Shown here: piece after piece, positions 3,701-49,879 of the stretch
Position numbering within the stretch: the first letter of the stretch is position 1
Layout: each line of letters opens with the position of its first letter
Assembly: GCA_044892525.1 (NCBI GenBank)
Contig: CM097885.1
Location: 32,428,001 to 32,492,000 of the forward strand
Reading direction: 5' to 3'
Length of the DNA: 64,000 bases
Source of the DNA: Schmidtea polychroa
Taxonomy: Eukaryota
Program-made: the position numbers and the translations under genes
Notes under the pieces: generated by a model
What the model saw: the letters and a program-made list of their open reading frames with translations, nothing else
Database searches by the model: none
Told to the model about the DNA's origin: nothing

Positions 3701-4084
3701 TTAATTTCTATCATTATAAAAAAAAATTTGCGAGCGATTTCCCCTTATTTCAAAATAAATATCACTAAAAAAATAACATTAATAATCATTTTTTTAAAAA
3801 AACAAAAATAGATAAATTTCATCTTTAAATATCAATATAAAATTTTTAATATCATTATATAAATTTAAATATTATTAAAAAATGCTAATAATTTCATCAT
3901 TAAATATTATAAAAAAAATTTTTTACGAGGAATTTCCCCTTATTTCAAATTATTTTTACTCTTAAGATAAAATAAAATTTTATTAAAAATATAATTAATA
4001 ATCATTTTAAAAAATATTAATAATTTCATTATAAAATATTATTAAAAAATGCTAATAATTTCATCATTAAATATTATAAAAAAA

Positions 4085-4492: not shown

Positions 4493-4684
4493 TAAAATTT
4501 TATTAAAAAATTATATAAAAATATCATTAATAATCATTAAAAAATATTAGTAATTTCATCTTATAAAATTTTATAAAAAATTGATAAAAATACTTACATT
4601 TGACATTTTTGTTCATAGTTTCATTCATTTCAGAATTTTTGTTCATAGTTTCATTCATTTCAGAATTTTTGTTCATTTTCATAG

Positions 4685-5188
4685 TATACATCTTTTATTT
4701 CCGATGTATTTTTACGAGATTTCACTGTGACTGAAGATGGTGTTGTTATTCCATTCCAAGAATTTGATGAAGATACGATTTTAGACCCATTAGAAATTGA
4801 CTATATAAGATTTGAACAAGACCTGTTAACTAATATTACATTAGTTCATCAAAATTTAATATCAAATCAATTGACACGACTATTTGGCAAAATTGGATTA
4901 TTTTTAGATGCTAAAATAACATTAGAAACAAGAAAAAAATTAGCGATTTATTTAGGTTTTGAATACGAATTAATGGAAAGATGTTTGGAGAATTATAGTA
5001 ACCAATATTTAGTATATTTGGGAAATATACAATTTATTGTTGATAATATTTTAAATATAGAAGATATCGATGGTTTATTACAAATAACTCGAATGATAAG
5101 ATTGTTGATCGAGCAAATTACTTGGGATGATGTTTTGAAAAATAAGCTCGAACATTTAATTGTGAATATTATTTTGTTTTGTGAATAA
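4685..5188 (+). CDS. Helical accessory protein, possible death domain; start uncertain
   Basis: Open frame 4685-5188. RKKLAIYLGFEYELMERCLENY resembles the death-domain helix 2-3 pattern. ATG 4704 is one base out of frame. Confidence 0.55.
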   Translation, partial: YTSFISDVFLRDFTVTEDGVVIPFQEFDEDTILDPLEIDYIRFEQDLLTNITLVHQNLISNQLTRLFGKIGLFLDAKITLETRKKLAIYLGFEYELMERCLENYSNQYLVYLGNIQFIVDNILNIEDIDGLLQITRMIRLLIEQITWDDVLKNKLEHLIVNIILFCE

Positions 5189-5236
5189 ATTATTTTAATT
5201 GTGAATATTTTAAAAACAACTTTTTATTATAAAAAT

Positions 5237-5615
5237 TTATTTCATTGACTTTAACCAAGCCAAACAATGTTGTCCACATGTTTTTGTTATAGGAATTTGG
5301 TAACGTATTCGATTGTATTCAATTGGCATTGACATTGATTGTAGTTTATTGATTAATATAGGTGGATAATAGAATCCCATTGGATCAAATGCATATATTT
5401 TGTCTGGTTTCACGTATACTGCAAGCCAATGTTCACCATTCAGATTAGCAGATTGAGTATTTACAATTATTGCTTTGTTGACATCTAAATAAGGTATTTT
5501 GTCTAATGGGAAAACACCTAGAAATTCTTTTCCTAGTAATTTTCTTCCGATAACATGTATCTGAATAGAACTAAATTAATAAAAATTAAATAATTTAAAT
5601 TAATTCTTACTTCAT
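5237..5615 (-). CDS. Adenain-like cysteine protease, 112 aa, complement(join(5237..5570,5611..5615))
   Basis: ATG AA|GTAAG..TTAG|T TCT gives MNSIQIHVIG...GEHWLAVY...FDPMG...TCGQHC; homologous to the 21967-22351 gene. Confidence 0.9.
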
Positions 5616-5649
5616 ATTTGATTAATTGACTTTCTATATTTGGTTTATA

Positions 5650-6819
5650 TTATACCAAAACAGTACGAGTAGATGTAATTTGAATTTCTTTTTCAAAAAC
5701 TCCATATATAATTACAGAAACAGCTTCAGTAAGTGAAGATGCGAATTTAATATCTAATCGCAAATTTCCACTTTGTGGTAACTGACTTTGATGAAGATCA
5801 AAATCTGGTGCCAATACGAATATTTTTATTTAGATAACCCATATTTCTAATAATCGATTGCATATAACTTGTCTATAATCATCATTCTCAAAATCTTGAC
5901 TATATTTTTCGCGATAATCACTTCCTTTACTTAAAGTTATGGACTTGACATTAAAGTGATCAAATATAGAAAATGATTCTGAAAACGATCCACTAAATCT
6001 TTTACTAGATTGAAATGCAACAAGTATAAAATTAGGTAATCGTCTATCTCCAAATATTTGTTCTTTATAAAAAGAGGAAGAACCAATAGGTAATGAGAAA
6101 TCAACAACTTCTTTGCTTCTTAAAGGATAAATTGCATTTTTTGTAGACAGACCAATTTGATGTCCTGCCAAAACCGATGGTTCAACACGAACTCTTCTAA
6201 CCATTAATTTTGCGTCTAATAATAAAATTTTCGGTTCAATTTTCGCACAAGTTAAACTAAGTGTTGGATTTGATCTTGTTAATTTAATTTGAACACTAAC
6301 ACCTGGTAGTAAATATTTAGGTTGATCAAAGAAATCAAATTGAAGTGGGGAACATAAAGAAAAGGATTTTGATTTTTCAATCCATGTTTTTCTCGTAAGA
6401 TCTTTGTTAGTATACCCCATTCCACCTAAAGATGTTCGTTTAGTATCTCCGTCATAATTTATAAGTGTTTCAATTAATGCTTTGTGGGCAAATCTATCAT
6501 TTGATCCTTCAACTTTGATTGAATTAAAAATTAATTCAACGTCTTTAAAAAGGGTTTGGAAGAAGAAATTATTTGGAATTACTTCTGATTCGCCTAAATT
6601 CTCACCTAAATTATTAACAACTTTCAATTGAATATATAACAAAGTATCATTCAAATCTAAATATTCAGTCTGCGATCCATTTATGTAAAATTGAATCGAA
6701 GAAGAACCGGCATCTGTAATTGAATTTCTTGGGTATACATCTTCAAATGCTCCATGTTCAATCACTGCTTGGGGAGAAGGTCTATCAAAAAGACATAATT
6801 CTGATTTAGCACTAATCAT
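5650..6819 (-). pseudogene. Major capsid protein (double jelly-roll type) with frameshift and deletion near 5820-5870
   Basis: SELCLF..., YLDLNDTLLY, QPKYLLPGV and C-terminal GNLRLDIKF...VIIYGVFE. About 17 codons are missing relative to the element 2 copy. Confidence 0.85.
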
Positions 6820-7214
6820 TTTTCAAAGATGGTACCATATCCTTTCATTCTTTTGTTTATATGTTTCTTCATAATTTTTCGGCGTTTAAGTATTCCGCCT
6901 TTTTGTTCTTTATCATTTTTAAATACATCGGAAACTTTATTAATTACTTCAGGTAAATGTTGCATCACAGCTGATAATGATTCTTTAATTTCAGAAATTG
7001 CATTTGATTTTAAAGCAGGCAAGATATTTGCATTGTTATTTATTACGTCATTAGCTGTTTTCATACCAAAATTTCCTATTCGTCTAAGAATTGGGAGTGC
7101 AAATCTACCTATTGTCTTCAACCAACCGGTTCCATATTGTTTACCAACAAAATATGGTAAATCACCACCCGATTGGTTACTACTATAAAAATGTATTATG
7201 TCAGGATTACTCAT
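6816..7214 (-). CDS. Virion core/membrane-active protein (adenovirus pVI-like) with QxGG/QxGxG motifs
   Basis: QSGG, QYGTG followed by amphipathic WLKTIGRFALPILRRIG, and a basic tail. Lies between the minor and major capsid genes; ortholog at 20354-20722. Confidence 0.75.
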   Translation of the reverse strand: MSNPDIIHFYSSNQSGGDLPYFVGKQYGTGWLKTIGRFALPILRRIGNFGMKTANDVINNNANILPALKSNAISEIKESLSAVMQHLPEVINKVSDVFKNDKEQKGGILKRRKIMKKHINKRMKGYGTIFEK

Positions 7215-8224
7215 TTATTTTACGAAAATGTAATGTCAAGTATGTTTTATCTTCTTTTCCAAATATATATTTTCCACTATCATCTCGTATATTGATTTCT
7301 ATATTGTTTATATATGAAGACGATACAGGTAAGTACATTGGATTCTTTTCAATTATTTGTACTAAATCATCTTTTTTATGTTTTTCCACCCAAATACATT
7401 TCAAAAGAGGGACCAATGTATCACCAACAATAATTGGTTCGATAATATTTGTATAGATCATCAATTGTTGATTGCGTTGTAATACTTCAGGTTCTTTAAA
7501 ACCAATAATAAGTTTGTCAGTATATGTTTCTTCTAATAATCCTAAACTATTGGCTAAAAATTTACTAAATTGAACTTTACTGACATCATCATCCATTACA
7601 ATTTTAACGATTTTTCCTTTTTGAATATCAACAGATTTAAATGGACGAGGATAAAAGAGTGATAGTTGATCATTTATTTGTGAAAGATCTGTAATGATAT
7701 TTTCTTCGAATGTATCTGTAAACTCGACATCGTAATAATATTGTATAGTTAATCGAATTGTATCAAACTTTATTTTTCGATTATTTGGAGGAATAGTGAT
7801 TTGGTTCAAGGTTTTTTTAAAAGTTATTTCTTTTTCTGAAAATCCCAATTTTTGCGCTTCTTTAATACTATCGAATTCTACTTTAAAAGGAAAATATTTA
7901 CAATTAATGTTCAATGTATTTCCATCAATATATATTAAATAAAATGGAGAGTCGTGACTGATTGTATATTCATTTTTTTTCTTGGTTAAAGTAAAAGTAT
8001 TCATAACTTGTATGTAATACACTTTTACTATATTTGACATTTGAATTGTTGTAAAAAGGAAAATAATTATACACAAAGGTAAAGTCCATGAGAGCTACTT
8101 CCCATTCACCATCCAAGTAAATAGGATTTTGAAATTCGACATTAAATTTACCAGCTTCATTATTTGGATGAGTCTGAGGACAACTATTAGAAGGTAAATT
8201 CACATAAAAATCTTTTTTAATCAT
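7207..8224 (-). pseudogene. Minor capsid (penton-like) protein, copy B, frameshift near 8070
   Basis: N-terminal FYVNLPSNS...EWEVAL in ORF 7970-8224; C-terminal IYTNIIEPIIVGD...LHFRK in ORF 7207-8076. Confidence 0.82.
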
Positions 8225-9242
8225 TTATTTTACGAAAATGTAATGTCAAGTGTGTTTTTGTATCTCTACTAAATTTTATTAATTTTCCATTATCATCTCG
8301 TATATTGATTTCAATGTTGTTTATAGAAGAATTAGAAATTGGTAGATACATTGGATTCTTCATTTCTAGTTGCACAATTTCTCCTTGTTCATATTTTTTT
8401 ATCCAAATAGATTTCAATAACGTTACTCTTACATCTCCAACAGTCAATGGTTCGATAATATTTGAGTAAATAAACATTTGTTGATGATGATTAAATAATT
8501 TTGGAATTTTTGTTCTAATAATTTCTTTCTCTGTAAATGTTTGTTTCTTTAATCCCAACGTTTTTGTTAAATTTTTATCAAAGGTTATTGATGAAATGTT
8601 ATCAGCAAGACTTATTTTAACCAATTCATTATTTTGTATTTTTAAATCTTTAAAGGGAGACGGATTAATTGTCATTAACTGACTATGTATTTCAGATAAA
8701 GTATTGATGTATAGTTCATCTTCGAAATAATGTTCAAATTTTGTTTTTTCAACAACACTTATAATTATACCAAATTGATCAATTGTTTTATCTTCTGTAA
8801 ATTTTGGTAATTTAATTCGCAAATGATCACTATCACTAATAACCGATACTGATTTTAATCCAAATTTAATAGCATGTTCAAAATCTGGAAACGTTATTTT
8901 AAATGGAACATGTGGACAAACAACAACCAAATTCTCATATCTTTCAATGAACATGTCAACTTCAGGAGTATTTTTAGGATTTATTACTTCAAAGGTTCGA
9001 TTTGAATTATTTATTCTAAAATATTTAATTTCTTCATCCATCTTTACTTTTTCATATTGTATCAATGAATTACTGTAATAAGGAAAAGTATTATACACAA
9101 AGGTAAAGTCCATGAGAGCTACTTCCCATTCACCATCCAAGTAAATAGGATTTTGAAATTCGACATTAAATTTACTAGCTTCATTATCAGGGAAAATAAG
9201 AGGACAACTATTAGAAGGTAAAATAATATAAAAATCTTTCAT
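8217..9242 (-). CDS. Minor capsid (penton-like) protein, copy A
   Basis: FYIILPSNS, EWEVAL, IYSNIIEP, IEINIRDDNG and LHFRK motifs typical of Polinton minor capsid proteins. Confidence 0.85.
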   Translation of the reverse strand: MKDFYIILPSNSCPLIFPDNEASKFNVEFQNPIYLDGEWEVALMDFTFVYNTFPYYSNSLIQYEKVKMDEEIKYFRINNSNRTFEVINPKNTPEVDMFIERYENLVVVCPHVPFKITFPDFEHAIKFGLKSVSVISDSDHLRIKLPKFTEDKTIDQFGIIISVVEKTKFEHYFEDELYINTLSEIHSQLMTINPSPFKDLKIQNNELVKISLADNISSITFDKNLTKTLGLKKQTFTEKEIIRTKIPKLFNHHQQMFIYSNIIEPLTVGDVRVTLLKSIWIKKYEQGEIVQLEMKNPMYLPISNSSINNIEINIRDDNGKLIKFSRDTKTHLTLHFRKIND

Positions 9243-9247
9243 AATAT

Positions 9248-10404
9248 TTATTTAATCAATTGATTTTCGGATATCCAAGATGGAGTTTCATATCCATGCC
9301 ATTTAACATAGTATTGTTTATATTTACCATCTTTTTTGGTTTTTAAAATCTTTTGAATTCTAAATATTGTAGGAGCAGGAATTACTTGGAGTTCTTGTTC
9401 ATAGAATTTACCAGTGATTGGTTTGTTTTCATGATCAACTATCACATACATGACAGGATTCTGTTTTGTATCGATTTTAAAAATTTGATATACTTCATCA
9501 CTCCAATTATTATCAAGGTTTTCGATGAATGGTGAAGAATTGATTTTACTAATTCTCACATGATCACCAACCTTGTATTTCGGTTTATTGATTTTTTCTA
9601 ACTTTGTTTGATTTTTAGTAAAATCTGCAGGTGTTTGTCCTTTTAATCCTCTGTGTGGTGAATGATTGTAACTGAAAATAATTTTTGGCAAAACATTATC
9701 CAAGTTTTATTACCTTGATATACAAAATATTTTTTCAAGCGTTCTCTTAAAGTTCGATTAAATCGTTCTACGTGAGCAGCTTTGAACTGAGAAAATACTG
9801 AGTAATGGTTTATTCCTTTGATAACCTCTTTAACTTTGCTGTTATAAAATTCTTTACCTAAATCATATATTTAAAAATTAATTAATTAAATTTAATTACC
9901 TAAATCCGTTTGTAAATTAATAGGTTTACCATCTGCAAACATTTCTTTTATCGCATCAGCCATTTCATTTGCAGATTTAGTTTTTGTAGGAACAGCACGA
10001 GCATATCTATTAAAAACATCTATACAAGTCAGAATATATTTGTACCCCTTGTTAATTTTTGAATAAGGTATCATTTCCATCAAATCCATTTGCCATACAT
10101 CATTGTTTCCAATTGTTTTGTATGGTCTTGTTGGAAAACGTTTCAACATTGGTTTATTTAAACTATATGCTAATTGATTAGATAACCATTTCTGAGTTTC
10201 TTTCTTTGAATTATTCACTCGTTTTGTTAATTTTTCTACGCCACCAAAACCATCTGGATCTTTTGGGTTTGTCCATATGGTTTTTAATTTTTTCTCTATT
10301 GTTTTCACTTTTTTCACTTTTGTTTTCACATTTTTCACTTTTGTTTTCACTTTTGTTTTCATTTTTTCCACTTTTGTGTTGGTTTTGTGATACGTTTCCT
10401 TCAT
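9248..10404 (-). pseudogene. Retroviral-like (RVE) integrase with C-terminal chromodomain; intron 9858-9899; 1-bp frameshift near 9700
   Basis: WQMDL, QTDLG|KEFYN, VERFNRTL and YYVKWHGY motifs. Confidence 0.92.
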
Positions 10405-10474
10405 TATTACAACAAGTTGTCAAAATATTAAAATCTACAATATTTTTATTTGGTAATGAACTCTTGATACCCAT
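10211..10474 (-). CDS. Small putatively myristoylated protein overlapping the integrase 5' end
   Basis: MGIKSS start and a CC motif; positional homolog MGANPS...SSCCN at 18183-18410. Confidence 0.6.
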   Translation of the reverse strand: MGIKSSLPNKNIVDFNILTTCCNNEGNVSQNQHKSGKNENKSENKSEKCENKSEKSENNREKIKNHMDKPKRSRWFWWRRKINKTSE

Positions 10475-10800
10475 TAAGAACTTAATGATGAGATTGCACT
10501 AATTGCAGATAAGACTATAGGAATTAGTGCACCCAAGAACCCTCCTTTTTGTTTATATATTATCTTTCTCATTAGACGACGATTTTTTGTATCAACTAGA
10601 GATAAAAGTGATCTTTTATGTCTTTGCAATACTAATCTTTTAGCTTTAGTTATATTTACATTACCGCGGAAAACATTTATAATAACTTCAAGTAAATCAT
10701 CAATAACAAATGATGGAAAAGACTGTAAAATTGATATTCGTTTCGAATTTGGTGCCTTTATTAAAGCATTAAAATATGGTAAACTCCGTTCAAATTTCAT
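10474..10800 (-). CDS. Basic core protein with adenovirus pX-like C-terminus
   Basis: Ends QKGG|FLGALIPIVLSAISAI. First ATG is at 10800. Confidence 0.75.
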   Translation of the reverse strand: MKFERSLPYFNALIKAPNSKRISILQSFPSFVIDDLLEVIINVFRGNVNITKAKRLVLQRHKRSLLSLVDTKNRRLMRKIIYKQKGGFLGALIPIVLSAISAISSLSS

Positions 10801-10829
10801 TATTATTATTAATTTACGCGACGGATTGT

Positions 10830-10982
10830 TTATAATTTGATCCACTTCTTGATTTGTTTCTTAGTTTTTGTACTTTTTGTACTTTTTGATCCACTTTTTG
10901 TTTTCTTTGTACGTTTTGTTTTCTTGGTAATTTTCTTCGAAACACTTGGAAGATTTTTAACAACTACTTTTTTAAATGACAT
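10830..10982 (-). CDS. Small lysine-rich protein, 50 aa (possible DNA-condensing core protein)
   Basis: MSFKKVVVKNLPSVSKKITKKTKRTKK...; a basic segment occupies the same position in element 2 (from 17665). Confidence 0.55.
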   Translation of the reverse strand: MSFKKVVVKNLPSVSKKITKKTKRTKKTKSGSKSTKSTKTKKQIKKWIKL

Positions 10983-11001
10983 GATTAATTTTATTTAGTT
11001 T

Positions 11002-11625
11002 TTAGTTTTGTTTATAAATCGTAACACCGTTTATATTAAAAATATCAGTTCTAATACGCATATCATCTGGACATTGTTGTGTAAAATCAAAAAATAAATA
11101 TCCATGAGGAATTTTTGTCGCATCTTGGAATGAATCAATCAAAAATTTTCTATTATTTGGATAAGCTTGTCTTGCAAGAAAATCTATTATTGTTTGATCT
11201 CTAGGATTTTTGAAAATAATTAAATATTGGACATTTAAATTACGTGTTCTATGACTTCCACCTTGATGAAAAAGATTTTGTGTAATGAAAATAACTGTAA
11301 CTCCGCAATGTCTACTGATTTTTGTAAATAAATTATTAAAATCTTTTTCTTTATTTGCTTCCTGGTACAGATCATCGATAATAATAACATCACCTTGGCG
11401 TAATCTAGATGACCAATTTTTATCAAATCCTTTAATTATTGTCATTTTTAATTTACAGAAACTGTTTTGAGTCAATCCATGTTCTTCATCTGCACCTCGA
11501 TGCCAATATATTTTATTAAATTTAGATTTAAACATGTTTGATTGTAATAAATTACATACAAATAAAGTTTTCCCGCTTCCACTAGGTCCTACTATTTGAT
11601 ATACTGCGTCATTTCTTAATTCCAT
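11002..11625 (-). CDS. DNA packaging ATPase (FtsK/A32-like)
   Basis: Walker A GPSGSGKT, Walker B IIIDD, ISRH, FITQNLF and FKNPRD. Confidence 0.95.
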   Translation of the reverse strand: MELRNDAVYQIVGPSGSGKTLFVCNLLQSNMFKSKFNKIYWHRGADEEHGLTQNSFCKLKMTIIKGFDKNWSSRLRQGDVIIIDDLYQEANKEKDFNNLFTKISRHCGVTVIFITQNLFHQGGSHRTRNLNVQYLIIFKNPRDQTIIDFLARQAYPNNRKFLIDSFQDATKIPHGYLFFDFTQQCPDDMRIRTDIFNINGVTIYKQN

Positions 11626-11677
11626 TTTTTTTAATTAAATTATTTTATTTAATTTGTTTATAATTACAATAATTAGA

Positions 11678-12154
11678 ATGATCAGCAACATTAATTATAG
11701 AGGAAGATGTGTAGTTAATGGAATGAAGTTCCCATCAGGAAAACCTCAACATGTCGTGGACAGAAGTGGAAAATATCCAATTTTATTCTTCAAGAGCGGG
11801 AAATGTAGGATAATGGGATGTAAGAAACCATTACAGGAAGGCGATCTCAAATATCAGATTCAAGATTTACAAATCCAATCAATTACATTAACGCTAGATA
11901 TGGGTACATGCATTGATTTAAATGCATTGTCAAGGAAAACCGATAGTTACTACGAGCCTGAAATATTTCCAGCTTTACGTATTCTCAAGTATAACCCCCT
12001 ATGTGTAAATGTTTTTTCAAGTGGGAAAGTTGTTATATTAGGGATTAAAACATTTCATTATTTTAATCAAATTCAAGAAATTCAGAAATTCATTAAATCA
12101 TTAACTATAAATATCACAACAAATGAAGAAATATTGGAATATTTATTAAGTTAA
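11678..12154 (+). CDS. TATA-binding protein (TBP)-like protein
   Basis: Two-repeat pattern: LFFKSGKCRIMG and YEPEIFPAL...VNVFSSGKVVILG, compared with TBP YEPELFPGL...LIFVSGKVVLTG. Confidence 0.88.
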   Translation: MISNINYRGRCVVNGMKFPSGKPQHVVDRSGKYPILFFKSGKCRIMGCKKPLQEGDLKYQIQDLQIQSITLTLDMGTCIDLNALSRKTDSYYEPEIFPALRILKYNPLCVNVFSSGKVVILGIKTFHYFNQIQEIQKFIKSLTINITTNEEILEYLLS

Positions 12155-12217
12155 TTAAATTAATTTAATTAATTGTGTTTAAATTAACTGAATATCTACA
12201 ATAACAAAAATTCAAAA

Positions 12218-12565
12218 ATGGATGACGATAAGCAAGCTTACATATTCCAGACTATATTAACGAAGATGGAAGAATTGTTCCCGAATATAAAGAACAGACT
12301 TTCATATTGTGCTCCGGAATTATTAGCTTATAGAATCAAGCAATTAACGGGGATCAATATAGAAGAACTTATACGAAGACATTTCGAATCTGTACAAGAA
12401 TCAATATTTAAATGCATAGACGATTGTGAAGTATGTATGGATCCGATGAAATTACCATGTCCGTTTAGATGTAGATGCTGCCAAGAATATGAGATGAAAG
12501 AAGTTGTTCATATTTTACTAGCAGAATTAAGAAGAGCTTATTACAAGCAAATATTGGATGAATAA
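12218..12565 (+). CDS. Cys-rich hypothetical protein (CxFxCxCC...LRRxxY)
   Basis: Homologous to 15999-16409; same position downstream of the TBP-like gene. Confidence 0.8.
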   Translation: MDDDKQAYIFQTILTKMEELFPNIKNRLSYCAPELLAYRIKQLTGINIEELIRRHFESVQESIFKCIDDCEVCMDPMKLPCPFRCRCCQEYEMKEVVHILLAELRRAYYKQILDE

Positions 12566-12644
12566 ATTTTATATCTTTACATTTGTTAATTGTTTGTGTT
12601 TTATGTGTCTAGTTCATTTTTATGTATTTGGTCGATATATTATT

Positions 12645-12675
<31 letters not shown>

Positions 12676-12949
12676 TTATTCCATTAAAATTTTCATTTGA
12701 CTTTGAAAAATATTTCATTGAAATTATCTTAAAATTTTCCATCTAAAATTATCATTGAAAAATATTTCATAAAAATTTCCATTAAAAATTACTTAAAAAA
12801 ATTATTTCATAAAAATTTTCTATTAAAAATTACTTAAAAAAATATTCCATAAAAATTTTCATTAAAAAATAATTCATTAAAATTTCTATTAAAAAATTTC
12901 AATTCTTAAACACCTTCAACTTTTTGTAATTAAATTTTAAAATCTTACT

Positions 12950-13838
12950 TTAATTTACTTTAATTTACTTATTTAAAATTTTTTACCATTGATTACTTAA
13001 TTTAAAAATTTGGACCATTATTTACTGTAATTTAATTTTTTAGAACCTTAATTTACTTTAATTTAATTTTTAGAACCATAATTTACTTTAAATTTAATTT
13101 TTGGACCATTGTTTACTTTAATTCAATTTTTAGAACCATAATTTACTTTAAATTTAATTTTTGGACCATAATTTACTGTAATTCAAAAATTTTGGCCATA
13201 ATTTACTGTAATTTAATTTTTTAGAACCTAAATTTACTTTAATTTAATTTTTGGACCATTATTTACTGTAATTCAAAAATTTTGGCCATAATTTACTGTA
13301 ATTCAAAAATTTGAGCCATAATTTACTGTAATTGAAAATTTACCACGTTTTTTAGTGTAGATCAGCTTTTTCTCAGGTCCATCGAGACCCCCTCGCTATA
13401 GTGTGATAAATCCTTGGCTTTTTTAGTGTAGACCAGCTTTTTGTATTGAAAAAAATTTTATTTGTATTGAAAATCCCAGGACCATCGTTTTTGTATTGAA
13501 AAAATTTTATTTGTATTGAAAAATTTCCAGGACCATCGTTTTTGTATTGAAAAAATTTTATTTGTATTGAAAATCCCAGGACCATCGAGACCCCCTCGCT
13601 ATAGTGTGATAAATCCTTGGCTTTTTTAGTGTAGACCAGCTTTTTGTATTGAAAAAAAATTTTTGTATTGAAAATCCCAGGACCATCGAGACCCCCTCAC
13701 TATAGTGTGATAAAAAAAAATTTGGACTAAAAATCCCTGAAAGCAAAAAAATGAGTTGGGAACAATTGCGTAATAAAAATTTGGGAACAATGGGGGGGTA
13801 ACCCCCCCATTGTTCCCGTAAGCTACTAACTACCTACT
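12950..13838. repeat. Probable terminal (TIR) region of element 1: ~30-bp degenerate tandem repeats, longer nested repeats and a terminal hairpin
   Basis: CCATAATTTACTGTAATT units; GGACCATCGAGACCCCCTC-like units x3; perfect inverted repeat at 13783-13817. The partner TIR is outside the window. Confidence 0.7.
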
Positions 13839-36957: not shown

Positions 36958-38528
36958 GTAAAGAATAAGAATAATTGATAAATTCCAAAAACTTTATTTA
37001 AGAAATTGTGGTACTATTTATAGTACCCGGTGTGTCGACACCAACACAATCAGCAATATCTTTTTGGGAAATAATAATCAGTGACATAATTTAAGGACCC
37101 AGACAATCAAAAATAATAAATCACACAAGGAGGCATTACATAATATAGGGCAAAGGTTAGGGAAATCAAATATCCCATTATAATTACATCACATAGTTGA
37201 AAAAACGAAAGATTCTCTACAAAATTATGTTTTTTTATATTTTACAGTACTATTGGTAATTAAATATTTTTTTGAGAAAGACGTCTCATCTCCAACCTCC
37301 TTTTTTAAGATCAATGCCATTTTGAAGTTAGCATTTAAGAGTAAGGTCATCGTAACGTGAAATTTGTGTTATTTAATGCATAAACTTGCATTATCATGAC
37401 ATTTCTTGTCTTGATAGGATTTTGTTTTAGCTATAATTATTAAGTAAATATTTTTTATCAAGTCGGGCAACCAAAACTCCATTTATGTCCAAACATTGTA
37501 CTTGCTGCTTTACCCTCACAGCTTTCACCGATTCTCTGTATTATTAACTCTGTCGACATTATTCTCCTAACATTACGTTATTTTTCTCATTAAATCCACT
37601 TCACCCCAATATTATTTTCAGTCACACTCACTTTACCGTAACAGTAACTCTCATTCAACCACACCCGCTTCACTTCAATGCTATTTTTGTCAACAATAAT
37701 TTTTAAAGGTATTATTAATAGTATTAGTAGTGAATAGTAAGGACTCCAGGACACTTTCAAGGTCATCCCAATGTCCAGATCAAATATAGGTCAATCGAAT
37801 CATTTATTTTTTAAATTAACATTTTATTTAATTACTTCTTTTTAATTTTTAATTTTTTATTTTTTCATTTTAATTTTATTAATTAATTATTTTATTATGT
37901 TTTATTTTAATTTATTACATTTAATTAATTTATTAGTTTATTAATATTTTATTTTAATTACTTACGCTATTTAATTATTATTATTATTATTATTATTATT
38001 TTTTTTTTATTTTATTTTTTTTTAATTAATTAATTTATTTTTTAATTTTATTTAATTACTTCTATTTATTTTTTTTTCCTTTTTAATTTTCTTAATTAAT
38101 TATTTTATTATGCTTTTATTTTAGTATTATTTTATTATTTTATTTATTATTATTATTTTTTTATTTTTTTTTTATTTTTTTTTTAATTTTACATTTACAT
38201 TATATTCTAACAAGAGGTAAATTATAACGATAATATTTCAATTTGAATAAAATTTTAAATAGTAATTATTCAATTTGAATAAATTTTAATTAGAAATTAT
38301 TTAATTTATTATAAAATAAAACGCTGAGTTAATTTTAGATAAACTGGATATTAATATTTCGGAAAAAATAAATAAATAAATAAAATAAACACAAAAATAA
38401 TATTTCTTACTTGAAACTAATTATCTAAATTAATTGGACAAATGAATAATTAAATGATAAAACACATTTTAATTAACTAAGTCAAACAATTCACAATATA
38501 TATTTTATTATTCACATAAATTTAATTG

Positions 38529-41393
38529 TTAAAGTGCTTGTTTCGATTTGCATTCATTTATAGACATAGCAGTTGCAATATGCATTTGGCGAATCTTATA
38601 GTGACCGTAGGCATAACTTTCATTACAATTGTACCAATACCTTTTATCGTCCAAACATTGGAGAGCTCGTTTTTCTGTCATGAAAGTATACAACTGATGA
38701 TTGGCACTTCCTATTCTTTTTTGTGGGATGCTCACTGTTCCACCATCAGTATACACTTTTTTATAGGCTTCATGTGTAAGATTAGAGTTTGTAAGTCTTA
38801 TTCCTTTTTAGCTTTTAGAGTGTTTTTCTCGCCTTGGAGTGAGTAGCACTTGGGTCGAAGAAACACCCATTCTTTATATTGATTTCCTTTATTCTCATCC
38901 TTGAATTTCCCGATTACCGAACAAATTTTATCTGAGAACAATGGATCAGTCACTGGATAATTTGAAGTATCTAGGAGCCCACCGGCAATCATTTTTGGAT
39001 ATAGTTGTAAGCGTAAATCTACATTTTTACACTCTAAAAAGAAGGAATCTGTGTCACCGGCTACGATATTAATTTGACAATTGAATTCTTCTCTATAACT
39101 CTGTAGTTCTTTATATTGAAACTGGTACATGCGAAGTTTGGATAAATCAAGTACGGTTTGTCCAATATACATTGGTCTATCTAAACACACAATTTCCTTA
39201 TTGAGTATAACAGCAATGAGATTATCCGCAATCTTGATGCTACGACGAAACATAGGATTACTACAATAAGTTATCAATCTTTTGCTTTTGCTGCATAATC
39301 TCAAATTTATACGTTTCTTCAAGTTTTCCACAGTTTTACCGTATAAACTGTTGTTCTTTAACTTATAATAATCTCGCTGAAACGAATCTGTACTAGCTGC
39401 TCTCATTTTGGTATTGTAATCAATATAGCCTTTGAAAATAGCCACTTGCTTGAATTCTACAGCACGATTAACTTTTGTGACTTTTGCGCCGTAACTCAAC
39501 CACTCTGTCAAAACTCTACCATTAACTACATAGTTTTTCATAGGCTCATGAGTTAACAACAGCTTTTCAACTTTACTACCAGGTGGATAACAAAGCTCAG
39601 GAGCTATAGGTAAATCATCTAGTTTATCTTGTATACTATCAGGAATGACGATGTCAACCTCTAGAACATATCCACGATCTCCATCAAACTTATCCCCATT
39701 TGCACATCTTTCAACAATACCATTCATTTCAGTCTGATCATTTATCCATCTAAATTCACCAACAGGAAGTTTTTGCGACAGCGCCCATCCATATAAATTA
39801 TTAACATCTAGGTATGACATTTGTGTTGATTCATCAGCTTCAACATGATGTTTGTTGATAAATGTCATTCCACCACGAATACCAGCTTCAAATAAACGGT
39901 AAAGCTCTGGATCTTGAATAAGTTCTACTGGTTCAGGTAACTGTTTAATAGCTGATGCCCAACTTAATCCGGGTATGGAAACAAACGATAGAGCCTCAAG
40001 TCCATCTTCGTCAAATGTTTTTTCTCTGAAAGCTTCAAAAACATCGGCCAATAGAAAAACATCCAACTTGAGATATACTAGCATGTAATCTAGCAGTGTC
40101 TCACAGTTGTATTGTTGCCAGATTCGATTTGCATGTATATAATCTTCTTGACTAACTCCCTCCCAAATCGGTGGTAATTCTGTTATTGACTGTAAAACAT
40201 CCATTGATGTAGCCATATCATAAGGAAATATGCCTTTACCAGTTATTAAATGCGAATTAAAAATCTTTGAAGTAAGTGGAAGACGTGGCAAGTTTTTTGA
40301 TAAATTTGCCAAGCTGCTATTTAAAAATTGTAAAGAATCAATGAATCTAATTCTTCTGCCTTTCGATGTCGCTGTAAGTGTGAGACACTTTTCTGCTGAT
40401 TGAGGAATAACAATTAAATTCCAATCGGGGAATTTTCCAATTGCATATTTTAATATATGATGAATGTCATATCCACGAAGATTATGAAATACAACAGGTA
40501 AAGACGGATTGATTCTTCTAGCCAAATTACAATCTTGACACACTGCTCCGAGATATTGACCGGTAAAATGATCATGATCCCGAACAGGTATATTGATAAT
40601 CTTTTTACAAAGGTAGCAATGAGTTTGATTCGTAAATTCTTCCTGCTGTTCCCAAGTGAGTTCCATCATTTCCTTCGATCCATTAATTTTATACCACGGA
40701 TAAACTATGTCTGTAGCTATATCATCCAATGCTTGTATAAACTGAATGATACAGTTTTTCCCAACAAATTTTTCATTTCGAATCGGACAACCTTGATGAA
40801 GAAGCACAAATTCAGATGCAATCGGCTCATGTTTTTGGAAGTGCTTGTCATCTAGAGGTAATATTGATTCAAAGTCCGCGTAGACAACAAACTGCTGTTT
40901 TATAGTTTTACTCCAGTCTTTAAATTCGATATATTTATTCTCTGGCATTGAGTATAGAGTCGTCCGCTCCACATTCTTCCTACAAAGACCTATATGTCTT
41001 TCAAAAGCAGGACGTTTTTGAAACCCATGAAGACACGTATGACACCAATGTGATTGGATTCTGACTCCTTCTACTCTATCTCTGTAATTGAGCAGTCGAT
41101 CGAGATTAGTTACAGCCAAAAAATGATAATTTAATTCTAAAATTTAGTTAAAATTTTTAATGATTAAAGGAAATATTACCTTCTTCAATCAATAAGAGAT
41201 ATAATTGAGATCCCGTCGAAGTACTTCTATATACCAAGTCAACGAACGGATTCTTGAAAATATCATTAGTTTTTTGTTTAATTGGATCTTTATTATATTT
41301 GAGAACATTGATCGCTAGATTTGGATTCATTGCTTCAAATTGGCAAATGTTAACCAACTTCATTGGAAACCAATCTGATTTCCATTTTAACTC

Positions 41394-41461
<68 letters not shown>

Positions 41462-42558
41462 GAATGATATAAATATATATTACCACTTAAATTATATTTC
41501 ATTATTCTTTCTCTGTGATGTTTTATGTCATCATAATGTAATACGGCCAGTATGCTATATAAAAAGCAGAATTGATCATTATTTTGAACATAACTAAAGC
41601 CTGGCAGTTTTTCAGGTAATTTGGCGTTTTAATGTAACTTGAACCTAAGTAAATATCTTGATTTATATATATAATAATGTAAATAAACTTACCAGATACA
41701 TGTATTATGTCTGATAATTTAGTTAAAATCATAGTAACTTCTAATATTTTATGAATTCTCCACCCACTACTTTGTTGAGTGTATTTCTCCAACTTTTCTT
41801 TTAATTTTTCAATTCCATCATTAATAAATAAAGATGACATTGTAATTGCTTTATTCGACAAACACCATTTTTTAATTTCACCATCCTCTTTGATAAACTC
41901 TGCACAAAGTCCAAATTGGATTTTTACTGTCCCCATTCGTTGAATATGATCTTCTATTTCTTTGATGAGACAATCTGGAACAACAATGTCAGGAGAATTA
42001 ATTGCAGATACATCGCTTGTCAATTCAACACGAGAACCATTTAAGTCAGACTCCCGACGTGGACACAATTGTATGTTAGAGTCTCCATTTCCGTAAAATA
42101 TTGACTTTCGTTTTGTGGTGCCAGAGTTTTGTCTAACTATATTTATAATTAATATTAAACAACTTAAATAACATAACTTGTAACATATTCTTTAATCTGC
42201 TTAGGATCGTATGATGTGTTCATTTTCGATTGTACTATAAAAAAAAATTAATAATTGTTAATAGTAGAAAGAGTATTACTTTTAGTGATCATCCTGCTCT
42301 TCGTTTCTTCGAATCTTCTAAGATGGTGTCCGTGTTGTCGTACAAACATTAACCACCTACCTGATGATATAATGAGACATTCCGGACATATGTAACCCGA
42401 TAAGGTAGAGTCATTTATCTTGAAATATGATGATGTAACTGATTTACAGTTCTCCACATCTTCATGACTTTCGGCAATACAAAATTTATATAAACTGCAT
42501 CCGTTCACTAAAAGAAAATAATCAATAATATTAGATAGAGAATAAAAAATTATTCACT
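38529..42558 (-). pseudogene. pPolB, left-arm copy, six introns, frameshifts near 41590 and 38805
   Basis: Mirror of 44890-48934 with two 1-bp indels in exons. Confidence 0.88.
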
Positions 42559-43544
42559 TATTAAATTAAAAGTTTAAATGACAAACATTTGAAAAGTTAC
42601 TGCTTATATATTACACATGATTAAATTCTGACCAATCAAAATGAAGGAAGGGGTAGGAAAAATAAATATATATATTCTGACAAATCAAAATCAAGGAAGG
42701 GGTAGGAAAAATAAATGCATTACGTTGCAGTATTTTAAAACACATTTTGATGCTAAAAATGACTTATTTAACATTTTTCATAATAATTTAATAAAAAATA
42801 ATGTGATGAACCCACAAAGTAATATCATTTTTCATCAAAACAGTAATATCGTTTTCATAAAATTGTAACAAAGTAATATTTCAGATAAATTTTCAACAGT
42901 TGTAAAATATTTAAGCAAATTGTAACAAGATTAGAAAATATTACAACAAAGTAGTAACATATTTCAGAGAATTTCAACAAAGTTGTAAAATATTTATCAA
43001 ATTGTAACTAAAATAATAAAAATATTGCAACAAAGTAATAAAATAATGATGTTAATTGGGACAAATCAATACATTATTTCGAAGACGGACAACAAATTAA
43101 AAAGAATATTGTAATAAATTGTGAAGTCTTTCAGTAAATTACAACAAAGTAATAACATATTTCGGAAATATTTCACCAGATGTAAAATATTTAAGCAAAT
43201 TGTTATAAGATTATAAAAATATTGCAACAAAGTAATAAAATAATACAACATTTTAAACTCTAGATCAATCCATTTTATAGAAAATTAAATTTTATCTCTA
43301 TAATATATGAATAAATATACAAGGAAATTACGTTAACTGTATGAAAAATACAAATTTATCGGAAAAACATGTGTGTATTACACACAATGCGACAAACTAA
43401 AATTGTAATTGAGCCATTTTGTAGAGAATTAAATTCTGCCTATACATGGTTACACTTAAATCCCAATCGGACAAAGAGAAAAAAGACAAAGGGGTGAAAA
43501 AGAGAGAGAAAAAACAGTAGAGTAGGGTATTGTGTGGACCCGGG

Positions 43545-43903
43545 AACAAAGACATATGACGTCATCGATGACGTCACAGAGACATATGACGTCATACCCC
43601 CTACCCCCGGGGGGTATTTTTTTTCATTTTTTTTTAATGTTTTTTTTTAAATTTTTTTTTAATTTTTTTTTTAATTTTTTTTTAAAAATTTTTTAAAAAT
43701 TTTTTTAAATTTATATTACGTTGCGGTATTTTAAAATTTATATTACTTTGCGGTATTTTAAAAATATATTACGTTGCGGTATTTTAAAAATATATTACGT
43801 TGCGGTATTTTAAAATTTATATTACGTTGCGGTATTTTAAAATTTAATTATATTTTATTTACATCATTCGAAAGGTCTTGAAGAGATCTTCGCAAAGGAT
43901 TCA
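43545..43903. promoter_or_regulatory. Unique central spacer with three CRE-consensus TGACGTCA sites, a G/C hairpin and ~24-bp repeats
   Basis: TGACGTCA at 43557, 43569 and 43587; TACCCCCGGGGGGTA at 43602; ATATTACGTTGCGGTATTTTAAAA-like unit x5. Confidence 0.5.
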
Positions 43904-44810
43904 CCCGGGTCCACACAATACCCTACTCTACTGTTTTTTCTCTCTCTTTTTCACCCCTTTGTCTCTTTTCTCTTTGTCCGATTGGGATTTAAGTGTAACC
44001 ATGTATAGGCAGAATTTAATTCTCTACAAAATGGCTCAATTACAATTTTAGTTTGTCGCATTGTGTGTAATACACACATGTTTTTCCGATAAATTTGTAT
44101 TTTTCATACAGTTAACGTAATTTCCTTGTATATTTATACATATATTATAGAGATAAAATTTAATTTTCTATAAAATGGATTGATCTAGAGTTTAAAATGT
44201 TGTATTATTTTATTACTTTGTTGCAATATTTTTATAATCTTATAACAATTTGCTTAAATATTTTACATCTGGTGAAATATTTCCGAAATATGTTATTACT
44301 TTGTTGTAATTTACTGAAAGACTTCACAATTTATTACAATATTCTTTTTAATTTGTTGTCCGTCTTCGAAATAATGTATTGATTTGTCCCAATTAACATC
44401 ATTATTTTATTACTTTGTTGCAATATTTTTATTATTTTAGTTACAATTTGATAAATATTTTACAACTTTGTTGAAATTCTCTGAAATATGTTACTACTTT
44501 GTTGTAATATTTTCTAATCTTGTTACAATTTGCTTAAATATTTTACAACTGTTGAAAATTTATCTGAAATATTACTTTGTTACAATTTTATGAAAACGAT
44601 ATTACTGTTTTGATGAAAAATGATATTACTTTGTGGGTTCATCACATTATTTTTTATTAAATTATTATGAAAAATGTTAAATAAGTCATTTTTAGCATCA
44701 AAATGTGTTTTAAAATACTGCAACGTAATGCATTTATTTTTCCTACCCCTTCCTTGATTTTGATTTGTCAGAATATATATATTTATTTTTCCTACCCCTT
44801 CCTTCATTTT

Positions 44811-44845
44811 GATTGGTCAGAATTTAATCATGTGTAATATATAAG
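44811..44845 (+). promoter_or_regulatory. Putative pPolB core promoter (inverted CCAAT and TATA)
   Basis: GATTGG at 44811 and TATATAAG at 44838, about 50 bp before the start; mirrored in the left arm. Confidence 0.45.
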
Positions 44846-44889
44846 CAGTAACTTTTCAAATGTTTGTCATTTAAACTTTTAATTTAATA

Positions 44890-45987
44890 AGTGAATAATT
44901 TTTTATTCTCTATCTAATATTATTGATTATTTTCTTTTAGTGAACGGATGCAGTTTATATAAATTTTGTATTGCCGAAAGTCATGAAGATGTGGAGAACT
45001 GTAAATCAGTTACATCATCATATTTCAAGATAAATGACTCTACCTTATCGGGTTACATATGTCCGGAATGTCTCATTATATCATCAGGTAGGTGGTTAAT
45101 GTTTGTACGACAACACGGACACCATCTTAGAAGATTCGAAGAAACGAAGAGCAGGATGATCACTAAAAGTAATACTCTTTCTACTATTAACAATTATTAA
45201 TTTTTTTTTATAGTACAATCGAAAATGAACACATCATACGATCCTAAGCAGATTAAAGAATATGTTACAAGTTATGTTATTTAAGTTGTTTAATATTAAT
45301 TATAAATATAGTTAGACAAAACTCTGGCACCACAAAACGAAAGTCAATATTTTACGGAAATGGAGACTCTAACATACAATTGTGTCCACGTCGGGAGTCT
45401 GACTTAAATGGTTCTCGTGTTGAATTGACAAGCGATGTATCTGCAATTAATTCTCCTGACATTGTTGTTCCAGATTGTCTCATCAAAGAAATAGAAGATC
45501 ATATTCAACGAATGGGGACAGTAAAAATCCAATTTGGACTTTGTGCAGAGTTTATCAAAGAGGATGGTGAAATTAAAAAATGGTGTTTGTCGAATAAAGC
45601 AATTACAATGTCATCTTTATTTATTAATGATGGAATTGAAAAATTAAAAGAAAAGTTGGAGAAATACACTCAACAAAGTAGTGGGTGGAGAATTCATAAA
45701 ATATTAGAAGTTACTATGATTTTAACTAAATTATCAGACATAATACATGTATCTGGTAAGTTTATTTACATTATTATATATATAAATCAAGATATTTACT
45801 TAGGTTCAAGTTACATTAAAACGCCAAATTACCTGAAAAACTGCCAGGCTTTAGTTAATGTTCAAAATAATGATCAATTCTGCTTTTTATATAGCATACT
45901 GGCCGTATTACATTATGATGACATAAAACATCACAGAGAAAGAATAATGAAATATAATTTAAGTGGTAATATATATTTATATCATTC

Positions 45988-46071
<84 letters not shown>

Positions 46072-48934
46072 GAGTTAAAATGGAAATCAGATTGGTTTCC
46101 AATGAAGTTGGTTAACATTTGCCAATTTGAAGCAATGAATCCAAATCTAGCGATCAATGTTCTCAAATATAATAAAGATCCAATTAAACAAAAAACTAAT
46201 GATATTTTCAAGAATCCGTTCGTTGACTTGGTATATAGAAGTACTTCGACGGGATCTCAATTATATCTCTTATTGATTGAAGAAGGTAATATTTCCTTTA
46301 ATCATTAAAAATTTTAACTAAATTTTAGAATTAAATTATCATTTTTTGGCTGTAACTAATCTCGATCGACTGCTCAATTACAGAGATAGAGTAGAAGGAG
46401 TCAGAATCCAATCACATTGGTGTCATACGTGTCTTCATGGGTTTCAAAAACGTCCTGCTTTTGAAAGACATATAGGTCTTTGTAGGAAGAATGTGGAGCG
46501 GACGACTCTATACTCAATGCCAGAGAATAAATATATCGAATTTAAAGACTGGAGTAAAACTATAAAACAGCAGTTTGTTGTCTACGCGGACTTTGAATCA
46601 ATATTACCTCTAGATGACAAGCACTTCCAAAAACATGAGCCGATTGCATCTGAATTTGTGCTTCTTCATCAAGGTTGTCCGATTCGAAATGAAAAATTTG
46701 TTGGGAAAAACTGTATCATTCAGTTTATACAAGCATTGGATGATATAGCTACAGACATAGTTTATCCGTGGTATAAAATTAATGGATCGAAGGAAATGAT
46801 GGAACTCACTTGGGAACAGCAGGAAGAATTTACGAATCAAACTCATTGCTACCTTTGTAAAAAGATTATCAATATACCTGTTCGGGATCATGATCATTTT
46901 ACCGGTCAATATCTCGGAGCAGTGTGTCAAGATTGTAATTTGGCTAGAAGAATCAATCCGTCTTTACCTGTTGTATTTCATAATCTTCGTGGATATGACA
47001 TTCATCATATATTAAAATATGCAATTGGAAAATTCCCCGATTGGAATTTAATTGTTATTCCTCAATCAGCAGAAAAGTGTCTCACACTTACAGCGACATC
47101 GAAAGGCAGAAGAATTAGATTCATTGATTCTTTACAATTTTTAAATAGCAGCTTGGCAAATTTATCAAAAAACTTGCCACGTCTTCCACTTACTTCAAAG
47201 ATTTTTAATTCGCATTTAATAACTGGTAAAGGCATATTTCCTTATGATATGGCTACATCAATGGATGTTTTACAGTCAATAACAGAATTACCACCGATTT
47301 GGGAGGGAGTTAGTCAAGAAGATTATATACATGCAAATCGAATCTGGCAACAATACAACTGTGAGACACTGCTAGATTACATGCTAGTATATCTCAAGTT
47401 GGATGTTTTTCTATTGGCCGATGTTTTTGAAGCTTTCAGAGAAAAAACATTTGACGAAGATGGACTTGAGGCTCTATCGTTTGTTTCCATACCCGGATTA
47501 AGTTGGGCATCAGCTATTAAACAGTTACCTGAACCAGTAGAACTTATTCAAGATCCAGAGCTTTACCGTTTATTTGAAGCTGGTATTCGTGGTGGAATGA
47601 CATTTATCAACAAACATCATGTTGAAGCTGATGAATCAACACAAATGTCATACCTAGATGTTAATAACTTATATGGATGGGCGCTGTCGCAAAAACTTCC
47701 TGTTGGTGAATTTAGATGGATAAATGATCAGACTGAAATGAATGGTATTGTTGAAAGATGTGCAAATGGGGATAAGTTTGATGGAGATCGTGGATATGTT
47801 CTAGAGGTTGACATCGTCATTCCTGATAGTATACAAGATAAACTAGATGATTTACCTATAGCTCCTGAGCTTTGTTATCCACCTGGTAGTAAAGTTGAAA
47901 AGCTGTTGTTAACTCATGAGCCTATGAAAAACTATGTAGTTAATGGTAGAGTTTTGACAGAGTGGTTGAGTTACGGCGCAAAAGTCACAAAAGTTAATCG
48001 TGCTGTAGAATTCAAGCAAGTGGCTATTTTCAAAGGCTATATTGATTACAATACCAAAATGAGAGCAGCTAGTACAGATTCGTTTCAGCGAGATTATTAT
48101 AAGTTAAAGAACAACAGTTTATACGGTAAAACTGTGGAAAACTTGAAGAAACGTATAAATTTGAGATTATGCAGCAAAAGCAAAAGATTGATAACTTATT
48201 GTAGTAATCCTATGTTTCGTCGTAGCATCAAGATTGCGGATAATCTCATTGCTGTTATACTCAATAAGGAAATTGTGTGTTTAGATAGACCAATGTATAT
48301 TGGACAAACCGTACTTGATTTATCCAAACTTCGCATGTACCAGTTTCAATATAAAGAACTACAGAGTTATAGAGAAGAATTCAATTGTCAAATTAATATC
48401 GTAGCCGGTGACACAGATTCCTTCTTTTTAGAGTGTAAAAATGTAGATTTACGCTTACAACTATATCCAAAAATGATTGCCGATGGGCTCCTAGATACTT
48501 CAAATTATCCAGTGACTGATCCATTGTTCTCAGATAAAATTTGTTCGGTAATCGGGAAATTCAAGGATGAGAATAAAGGAAATCAATATAAAGAATGGGT
48601 GTTTCTTCGACCCAAGTGCTACTCACTCCAAGGCGAGAAAAACACTCTAAAAGCCAAAGGAATAAGACTTACAAACTCTAATCTTACACATGAAGCCTAT
48701 AAAAAAGTGTATACTGATGGTGGAACAGTGAGCATCCCACAAAAAAGAATAGGAAGTGTCAATCATCAGGTGTATACTTTCATGACAGAAAAACGAGCTC
48801 TCCAATGTTCGGACGATAAAAGGTATTGGTACAATTGTAATGAAAGTTATGCCTACGGTCACTATAAGATTCGCCAAATGCATATTGCAACTGCTATGTC
48901 TATAAATGAATGCAAATCGAAACAAGCACTTTAA
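44890..48934 (+). CDS. pPolB, right-arm copy, apparently intact, six introns
   Basis: Introns 44891-44940, 45169-45213, 45271-45311, 45756-45803, 45966-46072 and 46286-46328 give one continuous frame. YADFES, RDHDH, DVNNLYG, KNNSLYGK, GDTDS and RPKCYS motifs. Confidence 0.92.
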
Positions 48935-49879
48935 CAATTAAATTTATGTGAATAATAAAATATATATTGTGAATTGTTTGACTTAGTTAATTAAAATGTG
49001 TTTTATCATTTAATTATTCATTTGTCCAATTAATTTAGATAATTAGTTTCAAGTAAGAAATATTATTTTTGTGTTTATTTTTTCCGAAATATTAATATCC
49101 AGTTTATCTAAAATTAACTCAGCGTTTTATTTTATAATAAATTAAATTATTTCTAATTAAAATTTATTCAAATTGAATAATTACTAATTAAAATTTTATT
49201 AAAAAAAAATAATAATAATAAATAAAATAATAAAATAATACTAAATAAAATAATAATAATAAAATAATAATACTAATAAAATAATACTAATAAAATAATA
49301 CTAAAGCATAATAAAATAATTAATTAAGAAAATTAAAAAGAAAAAAAAATAAATAGAAGTAATTAAATAAAATTAAAAAATAAATTAATTAATTAAAAAA
49401 AAAATAAAATAAAAAAAAAATAATAAAAATAATAATAATAATTAAATAGCGTAAGTAATTAAAATAAAATATTAATAAACTAATAAATTAATTAAATGTA
49501 ATAAATTAAAATAAAACATAATAAAATAATTAATTAATAAAATTAAAATGAAAAAAAAAAATTAAAAAGAAGTAATTAAATAAAATGTTAATTTAAAAAA
49601 TAAATGATTCGATTGACCTATATTTGATCTGGACATTGGGATGACCTTGAAAGTGTCCTGGAGTCCTTACTATTCACTACTAGTATTATTATTGTTTTTT
49701 TTTAATTATATTATTTATAATTATTTTTAAATAACTTGACCATCGTGTTTTAAACTACATTCAAACTACGTTTTTACTCATAAACGCGGATCGCTTAACT
49801 CATATTCATTAACCCTTGAGAATGTAAGCATAGCAAATTAATTCAAAGATTAAAGTTAGTTAACTAAAAAGGATTGAAC

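Follow-up and report, generated by a model that had tools for sequence, protein, structure and literature searches.

More than 100 sites in the genome of Schmidtea polychroa are occupied by a family of palindromic elements with Polinton ends and a doubled polymerase gene (pPolB). One copy lies within a 64,000-nt stretch of assembly GCA_044892525.1 (CM097885.1), referred to below as the window, whose positions serve as coordinates throughout. The family, here named B to set it apart from the other resident Polinton families (A, C and D), is probably a half-genome that arose by copy-back from a Polinton since lost, replicates itself and depends on a helper for integration. The structure of the copies, their number, their target-site duplications (TSDs) and lack of integrase, the homogenisation of their arms, purifying selection on the polymerase between two subfamilies, and analogous products in family A carry this interpretation.

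Structure of the window copy

The window copy (37726-49681) measures 11,956 bp, reads AGTAGTGAATAG at both ends (37726 and 49681) and consists of two inverted arms that together make up 97.0% of its length, the remainder being a 359-bp asymmetric spacer (Table 1). The arms of about 5.8 kb and the perfect 6-bp TSD AGTATT reported in a preliminary description of this DNA are both borne out. Inward of 38382 the arms are 8 substitutions and 3 indels apart, and their divergence is far higher in an AT-rich stretch near 38100-38260. The spacer contains three TGACGTCA motifs, a C-run/G-run hairpin, T-rich repeats and 26-27-bp repeats.

The sole recognisable gene is pPolB, one per arm and both pointing outward. 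The preliminary description was correct in number and orientation, but the gene contains introns and extends beyond the open reading frame (ORF) it had seen, and the left copy is disrupted by frameshifts near 38805 and 41590. Its statement that integrase, capsid, ATPase and protease are lacking agrees with a tblastn search using 25 proteins, taken from the window and one nested element and including the integrase, capsid, ATPase and protease ORFs of three resident Polinton families, in which only pPolB matched and all other E values were at least 0.54; Pfam returned nothing in five of the six frames tested. Because the arms and spacer fill the entire length and no integrase match falls below E 0.54, integrase is absent from the window copy.

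A dispersed family that inserts as a unit

In the 781-Mb genome, the 22-base terminus of family B has 281 exact matches (140 forward, 141 reverse; control, 0), which resolve into 117 inverted pairs and 47 unpaired ends, or about 164 loci. The inverted pairs have a median length of 12,975 bp, with 87 of the 117 between 12 and 14 kb. Forty-six loci were read, 29 at both ends and 17 from one end, about 118 being left unread, and statements on the loci of family B refer to this sample (L-numbers label family ends or loci read elsewhere in the genome). All 46 are palindromes, or deletion or insertion derivatives of the same arm. A perfect 6-bp TSD flanks 27 of the 29 loci read at both ends, in the form of direct repeats with unrelated flanks, and 25 different TSDs are represented, the repeated ones belonging to two pairs of segmental duplicates. 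A spacer related to that of the window copy is present in at least 20 other insertions.

This TSD series indicates that B is mobile as one piece rather than a product of assembly, and it upholds the earlier claims of integration as a unit and of a structure that is not a fold-back of reads; of the further copies which the preliminary description had proposed to seek, insertions with a related spacer do exist, and TSDs differ among the loci read. With 117 paired copies, the case it had set against its own reading, a single copy made by arm conversion after insertion, fails. It is likewise highly improbable that the palindromes result from fold-back during assembly or within reads. Inverted flanks replace the TSD at two of the 29 loci, one of which contains a nested repeat and lies close to the end of its contig, as such an artefact would predict, but it is contradicted by the direct TSDs and unrelated flanks at the other 27, by arm differences at scattered sites and by the recurrence of a related asymmetric spacer across loci.

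Search for a complete parent

An integrase or capsid gene of the element's own was found at none of the 46 B loci read (of about 164); such genes occur near B only inside a foreign element nested at L049-L051, in the flanks of L043 and L073/L074, or in decayed neighbours (L109). The seven pairs longer than 14 kb were all read and represent nested insertions, longer centres or a fold-back, and neither among these seven nor among the other loci read was a complete parent with B ends encountered. The autonomous element with the same termini that the preliminary description had hoped for is thus missing from the sample, as is an integrase/capsid segment with B ends. A search with a 16-nt variant terminus (15 bases shared, then differing) stayed at background, with 3 matches in the genome and 8 for the control. 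Since no complete element with the B terminus was found, any helper must have an end unlike that of B.

Two candidates for the parent were rejected. At the 23.8-kb locus L049-L051, one B arm contains an entire nested element of family D, and at L109, where a truncated arm lies about 2 kb from ATPase, penton and capsid fragments, the genes are decayed and scrambled; in the family to which these neighbouring genes belong, the other 39 matches listed are 87-88% identical.

Some derivative loci have features of their own. L057/L058 (C4:44464209 onward) is a tandem array of three 8.97-kb units, and each of the two units read contains a single B arm together with a pair of short ORFs that are glycine-rich and hydrophobic at the N-terminus. 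The B copy of L040 holds an insertion with a 1,153-aa open frame that contains an internal repeat (L040:1751-6260), as well as an A-ended element without coding match (L041/L042).

Half-genomes in family A and candidate helpers

Family A, with 4,049 termini in the genome and complete lengths of 14.5 and 17.1 kb, provides a precedent for such products. Its copy in the window carries integrase, ATPase, protease and putative capsid genes, a TBP-like gene and its own pPolB, the 3' end of which is missing; the TBP-like gene, at 11639-12154 (+), matches Pfam PF00352 with E 9e-16. Ten end pairs were sampled over the outer 4.4 kb at each end, eight of them with TSDs: one is complete, two have pPolB at both ends, one carries integrase and ATPase at a single end, and six show no coding match in the part sampled, four of these six with a TSD. 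In the pairs with pPolB at both ends, inverted identity is 99.7-99.8% over the part read (the middle being unread), and the polymerase is 96-97% identical to that of the complete element. The opposite half is represented by L023-L025 and L026-L028, two family A palindromes with integrase and capsid only, which have TSDs and differ in their fold-back points. Half-genome palindromes therefore arise from both Polinton ends in this genome. The copy-back origin proposed in the preliminary description gains plausibility from family A, which shows the same kind of product beside its complete form, while the template switch itself is something we infer.

L081/L082 and L095/L096, a second kind of element with A termini and pPolB at both ends, span about 13.4 kb and are 97.9% alike with different TSDs (middles unread), and further inverted integrase pairs occur in the genome 6-9 kb apart.

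Family D elements are about 15 kb long and carry integrase, ATPase and capsid genes; their terminus has 2,911 matches, mostly four per element. Either A or D could be the helper for B. The preliminary description had judged the Polinton at the left of the window, its element 1, an improbable helper, a judgement that is unproven, the family of that element (A) being one of the two abundant candidates.

Several further features of family D were noted. Each 246-bp terminal repeat has inverted ends of its own, 24 bp long, which yields four termini per element; a TSD is present at all three elements read (L099-L104; L049-L051); the integrase ORF includes a phospholipase A2-like domain; and the copy nested in the B arm lies within a locally inverted segment.

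The occurrence of both half-genome kinds with TSDs in family A also bears on the notion of a divided genome, in which polymerase-only and integrase/capsid-only palindromes would complement each other as two segments, arm doubling keeping a packageable length. The concentration of B pairs at 12-14 kb, close to the lengths of complete A and D elements, would suit it, as would the narrow size range of Mavericks, taken as a packaging constraint in PMC8097293, and the common termini of bidnavirus segments (PMC8502044). Nevertheless, we regard this division as distinctly unlikely: no integrase/capsid segment with B ends is present among the loci read, the two family A integrase/capsid palindromes differ in fold-back point and may be one-off events, a partner is unnecessary where complete A and D elements abound, and one young founder would also produce a tight size range. 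A broader version, quite unlikely in our estimation, holds that Polintons here break up into mirror-image halves, each an independent segment that complements the other, with polymerase-only ones replicating, integrase/capsid-only palindromes or complete elements of other families integrating and packaging, and doubling selected for packageable length; B would then be an old, parent-free polymerase segment that has survived the virus it came from, has acquired introns and relies for its movement on a different family's integrase. If true, the germline would have preserved a natural transition between an undivided virus genome and a divided one.

The polymerase gene and its relatives

The long ORF matches DNA_pol_B_2 (PF03175, E 8e-32) and contains the catalytic motifs, along with a weak Endonuclease_7 match (E 6e-5, slightly below its cut-off). 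Intronless metagenome homologues, the best full-length ones 61-62% identical, align to the right arm in four blocks. Three introns share phase 1, and for a fourth, further upstream, two acceptors are possible. Of the 47 arms surveyed, 37-47 have the GT or AG at each of six splice sites, the remainder comprising two arms with an altered donor and others unmatched by the motif. Four sequencing runs compared over 44850-45975 (all contigs, whose RNA status is guessed) show no joint at the predicted introns but are uninformative about splicing. The domain labels in Table 1 follow by position the order of terminal protein, vOTU, exonuclease and palm given in PMC11161782.

The polymerase of B is 54-57% identical to that of family A, 45% to C and 28% to D, and in the tree it joins metagenome proteins on a branch separate from A and C; these identities and this position argue that B is a separate lineage, derived from neither A nor C. 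The closest metagenome homologue lies on a 3.9-kb contig with no other gene, and no relative was found among viral contigs in public data.

The centres of B copies carry repeated TGACGTCA, TGACTCA, TCAAGGTCA and TTACGTAA motifs, which we take to be CRE, AP-1, NR5A and PAR-bZIP sites, respectively. The two pPolB genes, with introns that their relatives lack, are presumably driven by a shared central enhancer from which they would be transcribed outward.

Table 1. Features of the family B copy and of the adjoining family A element in window coordinates.
Feature	Position	Strand	Basis
Family A Polinton, 14,456 bp with TSD ATAACT, extending 618 bases beyond the left edge of the window (context, outside the finding)	1..13838	-	sequence, Pfam
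Left TSD copy, AGTATT	37720..37725	.	sequence read
Left arm, 5,819 bp, opening with the family terminus AGTAGTGAATAGTAAGGACTCC	37726..43544	.	inverted-repeat alignment
Left pPolB gene, outward-pointing; upstream end approximate, mirrored from the right arm	38529..42504	-	arm comparison
Central spacer, 359 bp, asymmetric	43545..43903	.	arm alignment
Right arm, 5,778 bp	43904..49681	.	inverted-repeat alignment
Candidate most upstream pPolB exon, matching the N-terminus of intronless homologues; both boundaries uncertain	44944..45168	+	homologue alignment
pPolB exon, terminal-protein region by position; acceptor 45251 or 45311	45312..45755	+	homologue alignment; domain order from PMC11161782
Intron GT-AG, 48 nt, phase 1	45756..45803	+	homologue alignment, splice-site survey
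pPolB exon, start of putative vOTU domain	45804..45965	+	homologue alignment; PMC11161782
Intron GT-AG, 107 nt, phase 1, containing a (TA)n tract	45966..46072	+	splice-site survey
pPolB exon	46073..46285	+	homologue alignment, splice-site survey
Intron GT-AG, 43 nt, phase 1	46286..46328	+	splice-site survey
pPolB catalytic exon: exonuclease and polymerase motifs, endonuclease VII-like insert	46329..48934	+	Pfam, motif check
Right TSD copy, AGTATT	49682..49687	.	sequence read

Selection, subfamilies and the likeness of the arms

Variants common to at least two of 26 insertions comprise 43 non-synonymous and 50 synonymous changes, against a neutral ratio of 3.9:1 (p 1.7e-12), and the split between two B subfamilies has a ratio of non-synonymous to synonymous rates (dN/dS) of about 0.17. 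The polymerase is under purifying selection between the two subfamilies; within the young burst no such signal is resolved. Both subfamilies are palindromic, their centres differ yet have a 17-mer in common, and mosaic copies exist that join one subfamily's end to the other's centre, which makes a common palindromic ancestor the simpler reading.

In the catalytic exon (2,595 bases, 12 copies), the arms of one copy are separated by a mean of 2.9 substitutions, compared with a mean of 21.2 and a median of 12 between copies. In most copies the two arms pair together in the tree, one mosaic copy being the clear exception, and L047 carries an identical internal deletion in both arms. Over whole arms, 14 copies hold 75 private changes shared by both arms and 60 confined to one, the two counts showing no significant correlation (rho 0.31, p 0.28, n 14), and arm differences follow no positional gradient (p 0.83; the window copy is covered over 3,053 sites only). 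Neither of two young pairs of segmental duplicates has a site changed in both arms of one duplicate, although they are too young for a strong test.

Such likeness fits panhandle repair during replication and equally conversion within the chromosome, which the data do not separate, and both routes of homogenisation probably act. The copy with the most private both-arm changes has an inverted flank of about 2 kb, which points to in-place copying. In L075/L076 with L097/L098 the flanks are inverted copies of each other over about 2 kb (99.5%, internally rearranged), and the flanks of the B copy L017/L018 are likewise inverted copies. Inverted flanks seem to reflect either arm-to-arm copying that runs past the element end or assembly fold-back. 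Because in-place arm-to-arm copying probably also occurs, arm identity alone is no proof of a replication route.

These data also serve to weigh the possibility of a passive non-autonomous element, for which a helper would supply both polymerase and integrase, pPolB being intact through youth, its selection inherited from extinct complete parents and its arms alike by chromosomal gene conversion. The copies are young, as the median of 12 substitutions attests; private both-arm mutations are neutral, with stops and indels among them; the copy richest in such changes has the inverted flank just mentioned; and the family A end pairs without coding match suggest that palindromes are apparently mobile without a polymerase of their own. 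We nonetheless consider a passive element unlikely, given that both diverged subfamilies are palindromic with related centres and mosaic copies, that 30 of 43 arms retain an uninterrupted catalytic exon (for which youth alone could account) with splice sites kept, that the both-arm and one-arm counts are uncorrelated and that, within the limits of their age, the segmental duplicates acquired no both-arm change.

Proposed mechanism and points against it

Under the copy-back reading, a template switch in the central non-coding region would have copied the pPolB end of a Polinton back on itself, replacing the integrase/capsid half. The palindromic product, keeping two identical ends and two polymerase genes, could start replication at both ends with the protein-primed polymerase that it encodes; the displaced strand would close into a 6-kb stem, the repair of which would make the arms alike, as suggested by adenovirus and linear-plasmid replication; and the integrase of another Polinton family, possibly A or D, would act on B in trans. 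A foreign integrase is suggested because B lacks one and yet inserts with exact ends and 6-bp TSDs. The complete B parent has seemingly been lost from this genome.

Several observations weigh against this account. Most of the purifying signal sits in the subfamily split and could predate the palindrome, and variants shared only among the other insertions (16 non-synonymous, 8 synonymous, most in one short tract) are indistinguishable from neutral, as are the private both-arm mutations (33 non-synonymous, 6 synonymous; p 0.55). Private both-arm changes reach 22 per arm pair, which fits in-place copying after insertion at least equally well, and two of the loci read at both ends have inverted flanks in place of a TSD. 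The B end has no more than 8 terminal bases in common with D and 5 with A. A rare complete parent may exist, since 46 of about 164 loci were read, and packaging, the free linear form, the transcript and the interaction with a helper are features that we infer, while the helper interference and capsid borrowing put forward in the preliminary description are conjectural.

Comparison with known elements and implications

Polintons are defined by pPolB together with a retrovirus-like integrase (PMC5499653), and lengths of 13-25 kb with inverted repeats of 100-1,500 bp are reported for Polintons (PMC10748475) and of 12.7-24.6 kb with repeats of 46-1,447 bp for Mavericks (PMC8097293). Like Polintons and Mavericks (polintoviruses, adintoviruses), B has AGT-type ends, a 6-bp TSD, a length of about 13 kb and a polymerase with exonuclease, polymerase and endonuclease VII-like parts. 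Unlike them, it has arms of 5.8 kb, far beyond the repeat lengths reported in these sources, lacks integrase, capsid, ATPase and protease, and has its polymerase gene doubled; its introns also set it apart from the intronless ORFs of intact vertebrate Mavericks (PMC8097293) and from its intronless metagenome homologues. PMC6431247, PMC13215967, PMC1864894, PMC3185507 and PMC8502044 offer analogies only. With many insertions that have Polinton ends and TSDs but no integrase, B does not qualify as an autonomous Polinton and behaves as a derivative that is non-autonomous yet self-copying. In comparison with satellite and defective genomes, its structure fits copy-back, and family A has an analogous product beside its parent, whereas no parent of B was found in the loci read.

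Kapitonov and Jurka reportedly described in 2006 non-autonomous zebrafish Polinton-N elements, one of them perhaps with multi-kilobase inverted repeats; the mirror shape itself may therefore have a precedent, which would lower its novelty. These elements are said to resemble B in having Polinton ends and a TSD and in being mobilised in trans; by the same account, they have no selected polymerase and share their ends with a complete resident family, whereas B keeps pPolB and no such family occurs among the loci read. Adenovirus vectors with internal inverted repeats, reportedly described by Lieber in 1999, and copy-back genomes of protein-primed replicons likewise have a spacer between two mirror-image versions of the same end and are helper-dependent, as B appears to be, but they are transient products with no chromosomal lineage, unlike B, which is inherited at more than 100 sites and keeps its polymerase. 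In contrast to invertron-type linear plasmids and bidnaviruses, B is nuclear, spliced and integrated with exact ends and a TSD; a bidnavirus-like second segment with matching termini and the missing genes was not seen among the 46 loci read.

No description of a palindromic polymerase-only Polinton was found in the literature at title and abstract level, although the supplements of PMC10748475 and PMC8097293 could list such elements. What stands as new is a parent-free, polymerase-keeping, intron-bearing palindromic family at more than 100 sites, beside both half-genome kinds of a second family. Since they would escape any survey that, like the filter of PMC10748475, demands several core genes in a 20-kb span, such elements may be common. 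B implies that the integrase of one Polinton family acts on ends belonging to a different one and that a polymerase gene alone can be enough for an element to persist, and more than 100 palindromes of 13 kb represent a source of chromosome rearrangement, with inverted flanks at two loci.

To our knowledge, Polinton replication and integration have so far been modelled rather than demonstrated. Arms of about 6 kb record arm-to-arm copying as hundreds of scorable sites, so that the panhandle model becomes testable against chromosomal gene conversion from population sequence alone.

Neighbouring elements in the window

Element 1 of the preliminary description comprises two elements, the 14.5-kb family A Polinton (1-13838) and a decayed Polinton-like region (13839-about 27300) with ATPase, integrase, penton, capsid and protease genes that are about 70% identical and in opposite orientation. 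Its interpretation as one old palindrome was rejected, the family A element merely adjoining about 70%-identical genes of another family. Upstream of a family C pPolB, short acidic stretches at 22830-23300 lie between GT-AG, T-rich gaps and possibly form a small spliced gene. A decayed Gypsy-like long terminal repeat (LTR) retrotransposon, with 194-bp LTRs that are 97% alike, occupies 32010-37194.

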